Below are positions 50,473 through 52,635 of a stretch of 64,000 bases of DNA, piece after piece. The position numbers were made by a program, and so were the translations under genes. Each line of letters opens with the position of its first letter. Within the stretch, counting starts at the first letter, position 1. The stretch spans positions 128,343 through 192,342 of the forward strand of contig JBAZTA010000004.1 in assembly GCA_041662125.1 (NCBI GenBank), written 5' to 3'. The DNA is from Candidatus Omnitrophota bacterium (GTDB lineage: Bacteria; Omnitrophota; Gorgyraeia; Gygaellales; Profunditerraquicolaceae). The notes under the pieces were generated by a model, which did no database searches, was not told the DNA's origin, and saw only the letters and a list, made by a program, of their open reading frames with translations.

Positions 50473-52635
50473 ATGGCTAAGACAATCGTTATATTCAGCA
50501 CCAAAGGCGGCGTAGGTAAAACTTTTTTAGCTGCTAATTTGAGTGTTGTGCTGGCAACAGAACAGAATAAAAAAGTCCTCCTTGTAGACCTTGACCTTGA
50601 GGTCGTCGGTGACATGGCCAGGATGCTTGATCTGAATCCGCAGAAAGCCCTGGTTGATTTGATCAACTTGATGAAGCGCCAGAACATCAAGGATTATAAT
50701 AAGAATCTTTTCCTTACCAAAAGTTCTTTTGGCCTTGATTTCCTGGCAGGTGTGGTAAAACCGCAGCATTCTCCTCATGTGTCGCCGGAAATGATTAAAG
50801 ACGCGTTATCCCTCTGGGAAGAAGAATACGATTTTATTATTATTGATGCGGGTAAAGGGTTTAGTGAGGTTTTTGTATCCGCGTTAAACCAGGCAAATCT
50901 TATCCTGCTTGTTGTTACTCCTGATATTCTTTCCGTGTATCAGACAAAATGGGCGCTGGATACCCTGCAATTCCTGCATTTCCCTTTAAATATGGTGCGT
51001 GTGGTGCTTAATAGGGCGGAATCTGTTTCGAGCATCAGCTGGCAGGAGATCCGGGTGAGCCTGCCCTGTGACATCCTGTCTCTTATTCCTTCAGAAGGAA
51101 AGATCGTCGGCCAGGCGGTCAATAGGGCTATTCCTGTTGTAATCGATAATCCTAAAACTAAGATCGCCTTAAGCCTTAAAAAACTGGGCCAGACATTAGC
51201 CAAAGAAGATAAATTATATATTGAGCGCCGTGATATAGACCAATTGCGCCTGAAACAGGGCGTGGTAGAAAGTCCCACGCGGCAATTCTGGCAATCACAG
51301 GGGTTGAGTGAAACTCTTTCTGAGATCACTATTTCTTCCGATGAATTGGATGAAATACTTCTTTTAAAGCGCAGGATCCATACCCGCCTTATTGAAGAAC
51401 TTAACCTTAAAAGAGTGGATTTAAAAGTTTTTAGTGATGCCAAGAAAACAAAAGAATTAAGGAATAAGGCCGAGATGATGGTAGCTAACTTTCTTGCCGA
51501 AGAAGCCGGCAGCCTTATTTCTTCTTCTGAAATACGCAGGAAGCTGGTCAAAGAGATCCTTGATGAGGCCTTAGGCCTGGGGCCATTAGAGGATTTATTG
51601 GCGGAGCGCGATATCACCGATATCATGGTTAATAATAAAGATGAGATTTATATTGAGCGCCATGGTAAGATCGAGCTTACCAATAAGAAATTTATTTCTA
51701 ATGACCAGGTACGCATTATTATTGAGCGTATCATTGCCCCTATTGGAAGGCGTATTGATGAGTCTGTTCCTATGGTTGATGCCCGTCTTCCAGACGGTTC
51801 CCGTGTCAATGCCATTATCCCCCCGCTTTCTTTAACAGGGCCAACGCTGACCATACGAAAATTCAGGAAAGAAAAGTTTAAGATCGAGGAGTTAATAGAG
51901 TTAAAAGCGGTTAATTCCGCGATCGCTGATTTCTTAAAGGCTTGTGTTGTTTCCCGCAAGAATATGATAGTATCAGGCGGTACGGGTTCAGGAAAAACGA
52001 CGATACTCAATGTCTTGTCTAGCTTTATTCCTGAAAATGAACGTATTGTCACCATTGAAGACGCGGCGGAATTAAAACTTGACCAGCGGCACTGGGTTAG
52101 GTTAGAATCACGTTCTCCTAATATTGAAGGCAAGGGAGCGGTGACGATCAAGGAATTGTTTAGGAATACCCTGAGAATGAGGCCGGATAGGATCATTATC
52201 GGGGAATGCCGCGGGGTGGAGACATTGGACATGCTCCAGGCGATGAATACCGGCCATGATGGTTCCATGACGACGGTTCATGCGAACTCTACTCAGGATG
52301 TTTTAGGAAGGCTTGACTCAATGATCTTAATGTCCGGGCTGGAATTGCCGATCAGGGCTATTCGCGAAATGATAGCCTCTGCTATTGATGTTATCGTCCA
52401 TACGGTCAGGCTGCCTGACGGTTCACGTAAAATCGTTCAGGTGACGGAGATCTCAGGCATGAAAGACGATGTGCATATCGAGCTTCGCGACATCTTTATC
52501 TTTAGGCAGGTAGGGGTGGATGCGGAAAAGCGCGTGTTAGGCGAGTATCACGCGACAGGCTATATTCCTTCTTTTGTGGAAGATATGCGCGTCCGGGGCG
52601 TTCCTCTCTCAGACGATATCTTCAAAATAGCGTAA
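50473..52635 (+). CDS. cpaEF: Fused Tad ATPases: N-terminal CpaE/TadZ-like ParA/MinD P-loop domain and C-terminal CpaF/TadA secretion ATPase
   Basis: N-terminus KGGVGKT deviant Walker A (residues 11-17); C-terminal half with GGTGSGKTT Walker A, the T2SSE architecture and His box. Confidence 0.88.
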   Translation: MAKTIVIFSTKGGVGKTFLAANLSVVLATEQNKKVLLVDLDLEVVGDMARMLDLNPQKALVDLINLMKRQNIKDYNKNLFLTKSSFGLDFLAGVVKPQHSPHVSPEMIKDALSLWEEEYDFIIIDAGKGFSEVFVSALNQANLILLVVTPDILSVYQTKWALDTLQFLHFPLNMVRVVLNRAESVSSISWQEIRVSLPCDILSLIPSEGKIVGQAVNRAIPVVIDNPKTKIALSLKKLGQTLAKEDKLYIERRDIDQLRLKQGVVESPTRQFWQSQGLSETLSEITISSDELDEILLLKRRIHTRLIEELNLKRVDLKVFSDAKKTKELRNKAEMMVANFLAEEAGSLISSSEIRRKLVKEILDEALGLGPLEDLLAERDITDIMVNNKDEIYIERHGKIELTNKKFISNDQVRIIIERIIAPIGRRIDESVPMVDARLPDGSRVNAIIPPLSLTGPTLTIRKFRKEKFKIEELIELKAVNSAIADFLKACVVSRKNMIVSGGTGSGKTTILNVLSSFIPENERIVTIEDAAELKLDQRHWVRLESRSPNIEGKGAVTIKELFRNTLRMRPDRIIIGECRGVETLDMLQAMNTGHDGSMTTVHANSTQDVLGRLDSMILMSGLELPIRAIREMIASAIDVIVHTVRLPDGSRKIVQVTEISGMKDDVHIELRDIFIFRQVGVDAEKRVLGEYHATGYIPSFVEDMRVRGVPLSDDIFKIA

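Follow-up and report, generated by a model that had tools for sequence, protein, structure and literature searches.

A receiver-less TadZ-TadA fusion protein as the probable motor ATPase of a conserved Tad pilus locus in Omnitrophota

Tad pili play a central part in adhesion, in the sensing of surfaces and in bacterial predation, and Omnitrophota are ultra-small bacteria suspected of predation or parasitism. To our knowledge, the way in which the ParA/MinD-type ATPase TadZ (CpaE) communicates with the motor of these pili is still to be resolved. In canonical Tad systems, such as those of Caulobacter crescentus, Aggregatibacter actinomycetemcomitans and Eubacterium rectale, TadZ is a protein separate from the motor ATPase TadA (CpaF) and carries an (atypical) receiver domain at its N-terminus. 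In the cryo-tomography of Caulobacter, six CpaE dimers (12 copies) were fitted round the CpaF hexamer in situ, the receiver domains were proposed to join neighbouring dimers, and a C-terminal amphipathic helix of CpaE was proposed as the membrane anchor (PMC13170226). An "atypical TadZA fusion" has been studied in Bdellovibrio bacteriovorus (Tesseur, Denise, Santin & Laloux, bioRxiv 2026, 10.64898/2026.07.08.737194). In that bacterium tadZA could not be deleted, the TadZ portion, along with the linker, binds the polarity hub RomR, and the protein shifts dynamically between the poles, favouring the invasive one (Tesseur et al. 2026). The full-text literature search returned no description of TadZ-TadA fusions beyond this one. 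Tad complexes have already been described in Omnitrophota, with TadB and TadC grouping with those of Bdellovibrionales, in a text that contains neither "fused" nor "fusion" (Seymour et al. 2023, PMC10066038). The present analysis concerns a stretch of 64,000 nucleotides (the window) from a metagenome-assembled genome (MAG) of a Candidatus Omnitrophota bacterium (GCA_041662125.1, contig JBAZTA010000004.1, positions 128,343 to 192,342), and in particular its gene tadZA (50473-52635), which, like all window features described below, lies on the + strand. The product of tadZA is very probably the motor ATPase of a Tad/Flp (type IVc) pilus, in which a receiver-less TadZ/CpaE ATPase is joined by a linker of about 40 residues to a complete TadA/CpaF. 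The two ATPase families and their order are the same as in the canonical systems, which also share RcpC, the secretin, TadB/C and Flp pilins with the window; the fusion and the missing receiver domain set the window apart from them.

The reading frame of tadZA opens with ATG, contains no stop inside its 720 codons and closes with a stop codon. The ATG is the earliest possible start codon downstream of the preceding stop, lies 14 nt past the end of the secretin gene and has no further in-frame start 5' of it. The N-terminal MinD/ParA-type (TadZ-like) ATPase domain comprises residues 1-250 (50473-51222) and is matched by the Pfam families AAA_31, CbiA and ParA on residues 3-235 (E 6e-18 to 2e-12). 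Its deviant Walker A motif, KGGVGKT, occupies residues 11-17 (50503-50523) and contains the signature lysine (K11) as well as the lysine of the P-loop (K16). With a Walker A motif that begins as early as residue 11, and without an in-frame start further upstream, no receiver domain can stand N-terminal to it, and the Pfam scan gave no receiver match either. The first-pass annotation of this DNA had described a single 720-aa open reading frame (ORF), with KGGVGKT in a MinD/ParA-type CpaE domain and without a receiver domain; all of this is borne out, and the ParA-family profile matches, whose absence it had named as a ground for abandoning the assignment, are present.

Judged by comparison with solved and profiled families, the C-terminal part of the protein is unambiguously CpaF/TadA. 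Pfam T2SSE (PF00437) covers residues 367-651 (E 2e-65; 221 bits against a cut-off of 24.9). The match to the C. crescentus CpaF chains in the PDB reaches E 3e-118, followed at a distance by archaeal GspE (E 3e-39), VirB11 (E 7e-33) and PilT (E 8e-10), and the top Foldseek match is again CpaF (8rjf/9e24, 43% identity). The Walker A motif GGTGSGKTT stands at residues 502-510 (51976-52002), and beyond it lie IIIGECRG with the catalytic E578 and the His box TGHDGSMTTVHAN with H595 and H603; the Walker A motif, E578, H595 and H603 are invariant in 77 orthologues. The N2 and catalytic C-terminal domains together comprise residues 378-720 (51604-52632). They are preceded by the N-terminal helical bundle of TadA (N1 domain, residues ~293-377, 51349-51603), for which AlphaFold2 (AF2) predicts long helices at residues 289-309, 323-348 and 352-377. 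The alignment with the CpaF chains opens within this bundle, at residues 332-335, and a KRRIH..L motif of the bundle is kept in all fused homologues. A complete CpaF/TadA with GGTGSGKTT had been placed beyond residue ~380, with the domain junction at ~51600. Completeness and motif were correctly recognised; the TadA part, however, already starts near residue 293, and the linker proper (residues ~251-292, 51223-51348) lies about 300 nt upstream of the proposed junction, as indicated by the CpaF alignment, the AF2 model and the conserved motif. The linker is predicted to be flexible, with short low-confidence helices at residues 258-265 and 270-275. The two halves are probably flexibly tethered, because the pLDDT falls below 50 over residues 257-292 and the pTM of the whole model is 0.45. 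The linker carries an Omnitrophota-specific F-W-Q-x-x-G motif, the tryptophan of which (W273) is invariant in the 77-sequence alignment.

The N-terminal domain is modelled by AF2 with a pLDDT of about 90 and, in the structure prediction that had been recommended as a check, adopts a MinD-like fold. Its closest Foldseek matches are the ParA-family protein 3ea0 of Chlorobium tepidum (TM 0.9) and the archaeal MinD proteins 1ion and 1g3q, within a TM range of 0.86-0.90. Unlike MinD, it is joined covalently to a secretion ATPase. Against the ATPase domains of free-standing TadZ proteins adjoining tadA, the domain scores up to 150 bits with 32% identity over 241 aa in tblastn, and against its best solved relative by sequence, a MinD, 65 bits in phmmer, the two scores coming from different programs. 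The domain also holds the tadZ position, right after the secretin gene and directly ahead of the TadA part. It is therefore likely to be a TadZ-family domain, MinD-like in appearance, on account of both the higher scores against free-standing TadZ domains and the position in the locus. The resemblance to MinD is compatible with this identity because TadZ itself is related to the archaeal pilus-locus components arCOG00589 and arCOG05608 (Denise et al. 2019, PMC6668835). The same domain could be regarded as a captured paralogue of the cell-division protein MinD, or as a generic ParA, that links the motor to a Min-like or partition-like system. MinD models are indeed its best NCBIfam matches (residues 4-250), its best solved-structure matches are MinD proteins and one ParA-family protein, and the solved E. 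rectale TadZ is absent among the 60 sequence matches and 50 fold matches listed for the domain. In addition, the fold, KGGVGKT and the conserved Walker A' and B aspartates are those of MinD, and the receiver domain typical of TadZ is missing. However, the MinD models score far under their cut-offs (TIGR01969, 97 against 201.75 bits; TIGR01968, 90 against 212.9 bits), and neither minC nor minE occurs near tadZA among the scanned locus ORFs. Together with the higher scores against free-standing TadZ, the exact tadZ position between secretin and tadA and the archaeal relationship of TadZ itself, this makes the capture of a MinD or ParA protein very unlikely.

The assignment to the TadZ family leaves two further explanations to be considered, and conservation of the protein bears on both. 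Among the 120 best database clusters, more than 115 full-length TadZA orthologues of 714-725 aa, 68-78% identical to the window protein, possess both domain sets. They stem from NCBI, JGI, ENA and Logan assemblies and show the same uninterrupted frame, and the databases record a protein identical to TadZA on a 250-kb contig of a Candidatus Omnitrophota MAG. The span corresponding to reference residues 250-330 is 76-82 residues long in 118 orthologues. In the N-terminal domain, the columns K11, G12, G13, G15, K16, T17, D39, D125, P150-D151 and N180-R181 are invariant or at least 90% conserved in 77-118 orthologues, and in the TadA part G505, G507, K508, T509, E578, H595 and H603 are invariant. 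Both halves are shown by these alignments to be under purifying selection. It could be objected that an error of assembly or gene calling, which removed a stop or shifted the frame, has merged an adjacent tadZ and tadA; the window does come from a MAG, and separate adjacent genes are common in other phyla. This is contradicted by the recurrence of the same frame in orthologues from independent assemblies, by the constrained length of the linker and by its conserved motif with invariant W273. It is also contradicted by the single ORF in the complete genome of a cultured Bdellovibrio (sp. HCB288; Pfam ParA and T2SSE), and by the detection of the tagged fusion protein at full length in B. bacteriovorus (Tesseur et al. 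2026). The comparative evidence is strong, and an artefact is effectively refuted and excluded for practical purposes. The remaining explanation accepts the fusion but treats the TadZ domain as a structural appendage without catalytic relevance, which serves as scaffold or steric regulator and in which nucleotide binding no longer matters. Canonical TadZ has been reported to bind ATP and to hydrolyse it poorly (PMC6668835). Among the 66 fused cluster representatives of the database search described below, KGGxGK[ST] is kept in 20, and in 27, from other lineages, the P-loop is degenerate (for example K-D-G-V-G-K-T or Q-P-Q-L-G-V-T). On the other side stand the full deviant Walker A motif of the window protein, retained as KGGxG[KR][ST] in 115 of its 120 close relatives, and the (nearly) invariant D39, D125, P150-D151 and N180-R181. 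This conservation matches the pattern expected if nucleotide binding by the TadZ domain is under selection in the Omnitrophota clade, and a role as mere appendage is improbable to a similar degree as the capture of MinD.

For TadZA as a receiver-less TadZ ATPase tethered to a complete TadA motor, the following mode of action may be proposed. The C-terminal part would hexamerise and drive the TadB/TadC platform, as CpaF does, and this motor would polymerise Flp pilins, and might also retract them, by way of the RcpC-secretin conduit. The TadZ domains tethered to it, six in all, would bind ATP and form MinD-like sandwich dimers by means of K11, and the TadZ module would couple the recruitment or positioning of the motor, and perhaps its activity, to a cellular or positional cue. 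The fusion would fix the TadZ:TadA ratio at 1:1, in contrast to the 12 CpaE copies per CpaF hexamer of Caulobacter (PMC13170226), and a receiver-mediated ring would no longer be needed. The ratio itself follows from the fusion; the "obligate stoichiometric coupling" that the first-pass annotation derived from it is an inference about the functional consequence. It has also been hypothesised for CpaF that physical inversion switches extension to retraction (10.64898/2026.02.24.707734). If this hypothesis is right, the six N-terminal 28-kDa domains could, as a matter of speculation, influence the inversion step.

Several observations weigh against this interpretation or against parts of it. The NCBIfam model TIGR03819 (TadA family) matches residues 329-658 with 349.4 bits, under its curated cut-off of 373.15, a near miss that is not decisive since the model describes TadA proteins associated with conjugal transfer and is of the hypothetical-equivalog type. 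The degenerate P-loops mentioned above imply that ATP binding by TadZ is not essential to the fused architecture in general. The TadZ dimers might form within their own hexamer, in which case there would be three at most, or they might bridge hexamers. The AF2 model, with its low pTM, leaves the inter-domain geometry undefined. The N2 domain of TadA is also modelled poorly, probably because of a shallow alignment; the alignment consisted of close Omnitrophota orthologues only, and confidence is low both for N2 and for the inter-domain arrangement. Finally, the Pfam scan found no membrane-targeting element in the linker region. A MinD-like amphipathic membrane helix was considered there as a candidate and is not claimed, the hydrophobic moment being unremarkable (0.56 for the best 11-mer against a protein-wide 95th percentile of 0.59); in this respect the window protein also differs from Caulobacter CpaE with its proposed membrane helix.

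The TadZA of Bdellovibrio is built in the same way as that of the window, with a ParA/MinD-like TadZ bearing a Walker A-like motif, a flexible linker and TadA, and likewise without a receiver domain. The single ORFs of five Bdellovibrionota loci (L007, L009, L010, L011 and L013, of which L010 is Bdellovibrio sp. HCB288; strain HD100 was not compared) are 41-43% identical to the window protein over residues 17-717, the N-terminal domain contributing 25-29% and the TadA part 54-56% identity. In both groups tadZA follows the RcpC and secretin genes. A prepilin peptidase (TadV/CpaA, peptidase A24) was found among none of the Pfam-scanned locus ORFs at window positions 43000-64000, and the B. bacteriovorus tad loci are likewise reported to be without TadV, with processing shared with the PilD of another pilus system having been examined (Tesseur et al. 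2026). The two groups also differ. The linkers are unrelated in sequence, as is the case between phyla generally, and the Walker A motif is KGGVGKT in the window and KGGVGKS in Bdellovibrionota. Moreover, tadB stands directly 3' of the fusion in Bdellovibrionota, whereas in the window a DUF192 gene, a gene for a ~520-aa protein with a helix-turn-helix (HTH)-like N-terminus and the pilin genes intervene, and tadB/tadC lie 9 kb downstream.

The wider distribution of the fusion was followed in two ways. A scan of one genome per GTDB species gave 80 loci, many of which matched TadZA query residues 2-717 whether they held one ORF or two. Full-length tblastn matches were consequently rejected as a sign of fusion, and an ORF check was used to separate single from paired genes, about 50 of the 80 loci proving to contain two adjacent genes. 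These separate TadZ-like and tadA ORFs belong to Bacillota, Actinomycetota, Chloroflexota, Acidobacteriota, Nitrospirales, Betaproteobacteria and Phycisphaerae, in agreement with the earlier statement that the two are normally separate adjacent genes. Single-ORF fusions were present in two Omnitrophota MAGs, six Bdellovibrionota-type loci (one of them in the complete genome of Bdellovibrio sp. HCB288), one Elusimicrobiales MAG, one WOR-3 MAG and two unclassified MAGs; a further single-ORF match with 53% identity, in a MAG labelled Planctomycetales, ends at the contig edge. The free-standing TadZ ORFs bear an N-terminal extension of about 130-200 aa. Pfam matches it to Response_reg in three loci of Bacillota and, weakly, in one of Betaproteobacteria, but gives no such match in one locus of Nitrospirales. 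This extension is absent from every fused form. The survey of TadA homologues for ParA fusions, which the first-pass annotation had suggested, was carried out by searching 1.84 billion cluster representatives (50%-identity clusters) exhaustively with HMMER; this gave 48,119 matches, and the best 150 of them were classified. Fusions account for 66 of these 150, with the ParA-like domain at or near the N-terminus (within ~35 residues in full-length matches), and tandem TadA-TadA(-TadA) proteins for 9; seven other representatives with a long N-terminus were scanned, and all seven proved to be FHA-TadA proteins. Database annotation of the fusions goes no further than "T2SS/T4P/T4SS family ATPase", "TadA" or "MinD".

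The FHA-TadA proteins of Myxococcota, Acidithiobacillus and others resemble the window fusion in that the N-terminus of TadA has received an added regulatory or recruitment domain. They differ from it in the nature of that domain, which is a phosphopeptide-binding FHA domain and not a ParA/MinD ATPase, and their TadAs count among the closest relatives that the fused TadA parts have. Near relatives in which an N-terminal FHA domain replaces the TadZ domain are P0168, P0171, P0173, P0178, P0184, P0205 and P0252, and loci that have no TadZ gene upstream probably encode FHA-TadA as well (L028, L037, L048, L052-L056 and L060-L064). Tandem TadA proteins with two to four ATPase units were also observed (P0121, 1156 aa; P0007, 1158 aa; P0122, 1605 aa; P0124-P0126, P0129, P0137, P0146 and P0177). 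They can be described as covalently linked "sub-hexamers" and are among the closest relatives of the TadA part of TadZA; P0121 displays three T2SSE stretches. With FHA domains found there in place of TadZ domains, the N-terminus of TadA seems to be a hot spot for gaining recruitment or regulatory domains. The origin of the fusion was approached with a neighbour-joining tree built from 213 sequences of the TadA part over 356 columns (100 bootstraps). Its best split placed the fused and FHA-type TadAs on one side and left all 48 TadAs accompanied by a separate TadZ gene outside this group, and the commonest bootstrap outcomes were 72-73 fused and 0 separate sequences, each in about one replicate in ten. 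The fused TadAs do not form one clean clade, the support is weak and the method is crude. In this approximate tree Omnitrophota group with the Elusimicrobiales sequence and Bdellovibrionota stand elsewhere among the FHA forms, so that the two groups are not sister clades. A single origin of the fusion could not be resolved with these data.

In gene content and order, the locus around tadZA is a Tad/Flp (type IVc) pilus locus, and its gene order is conserved in other Omnitrophota. The order is as follows: TPR protein, small ORF, PPIase, RcpC/CpaB, secretin with TonB_C, tadZA, DUF192, 526-aa protein, pilins, TadE/G-like proteins, TadB and TadC. The PPIase/SurA-like gene (46920-47879; Pfam, synteny) belongs to the conserved first part of the Omnitrophota Tad locus. 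It is followed by the gene for the RcpC/CpaB alignment protein (47925-48812; Pfam RcpC, E 2e-24), which is syntenic in all fused loci examined. The RcpA/CpaC secretin gene (48818-50458; Pfam Secretin, T2SS-T3SS_pil_N and TonB_C) ends 14 nt before tadZA. Downstream of tadZA are the genes for a DUF192 (COG1430) accessory protein (52722-53090; Pfam, synteny) and for the 526-aa protein (53187-54767), which has no Pfam match and is marked as a conserved member of the locus by its homologues and by synteny. About nine Flp-type (class III signal peptide) pilin genes follow (55025-57796), recognised in translation by the processing motif ..(Q/G)(S/T)(T/I)(L/A/M)EY.. ahead of a hydrophobic helix. The TadE/G-like proteins encoded between the pilin array and tadB are large, and the platform genes tadB (61952-62800; Pfam T2SSF, E 5e-19) and tadC (62809-63687; E 3e-16) complete the locus. 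In the Omnitrophota locus L081, an equivalent pilin array has a weak Class_IIIsignal match and T2SSF platform genes again stand at the end. The whole succession of genes that runs from the small ORF through tadZA to DUF192, with the gene for a protein of ~520-570 aa and then short, pilin-sized genes after it, recurs on other Omnitrophota contigs.

Some features of the neighbouring genes deserve separate mention. The TonB_C domain of the secretin lies at residues 468-545; the same architecture is found in L081 and L082, and the window secretin aligns across the TonB_C region in L001-L003. The DUF192 gene recurs in Tad loci across phyla (L002, L050, L006, L008, L020, L081 and L082). In most of the Omnitrophota loci examined it stands directly 3' of tadZA; Bacillota and one unclassified MAG have it after tadC. 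The tadZA and DUF192 genes are adjacent in the window, L002, L081 and L082; in the Omnitrophota MAG of locus L001 (4545-10645) about 6 kb separates them, which suggests an insertion at this junction. The 526-aa protein has 360 homologues, and all of those with a source name are from Omnitrophota. A few of them have precomputed winged-helix or transposase-type HTH matches, many share contigs with TadZA orthologues, and L081 and L082 have a Pfam-less gene of 561-572 aa at the same position. An inserted mobile element was considered for this gene and rejected, as its homologues occupy the same site in other Omnitrophota Tad loci. Its distribution suggests an uncharacterised conserved component of the Tad locus, possibly a regulator. 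Within the pilin array, the pairs 55989-56333/56346-56705 and 56706-57080/57061-57444 have near-identical N-terminal halves and give the appearance of a two-gene unit duplicated in tandem.

Summarizing, the fusion is not new as a kind, as it has already been described in B. bacteriovorus (Tesseur et al. 2026). The additions made here are modest: the fused form is widespread and always receiver-less, the Omnitrophota clade has retained a nucleotide site that is MinD-like throughout and that many other lineages have lost, and the Omnitrophota locus is strongly conserved. A more ambitious reading can be formulated, in which receiver-less TadZA would define a large Tad subtype of Omnitrophota, Bdellovibrionota, Elusimicrobiota, WOR-3 and other uncultured bacteria. 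Its 1:1 tether would replace the 12:6 CpaE ring, and the motor would be gated or oriented by the six MinD-like domains attached to it, for example through a constraint on CpaF inversion. Such a subtype would be found preferentially in predatory or epibiotic bacteria, where it would serve prey attachment. Taken as a whole, this reading is tentative and we consider it doubtful. No new principle is revealed by the window; what it provides is a link between the Omnitrophota Tad machine and the experimentally tractable TadZA of Bdellovibrio. As sampled here, Omnitrophota use the fused form universally and in a strongly conserved locus, and a natural covalent TadZ-TadA, which fixes both the partners and their ratio, would be convenient for structural work on the interface between TadZ and the motor.

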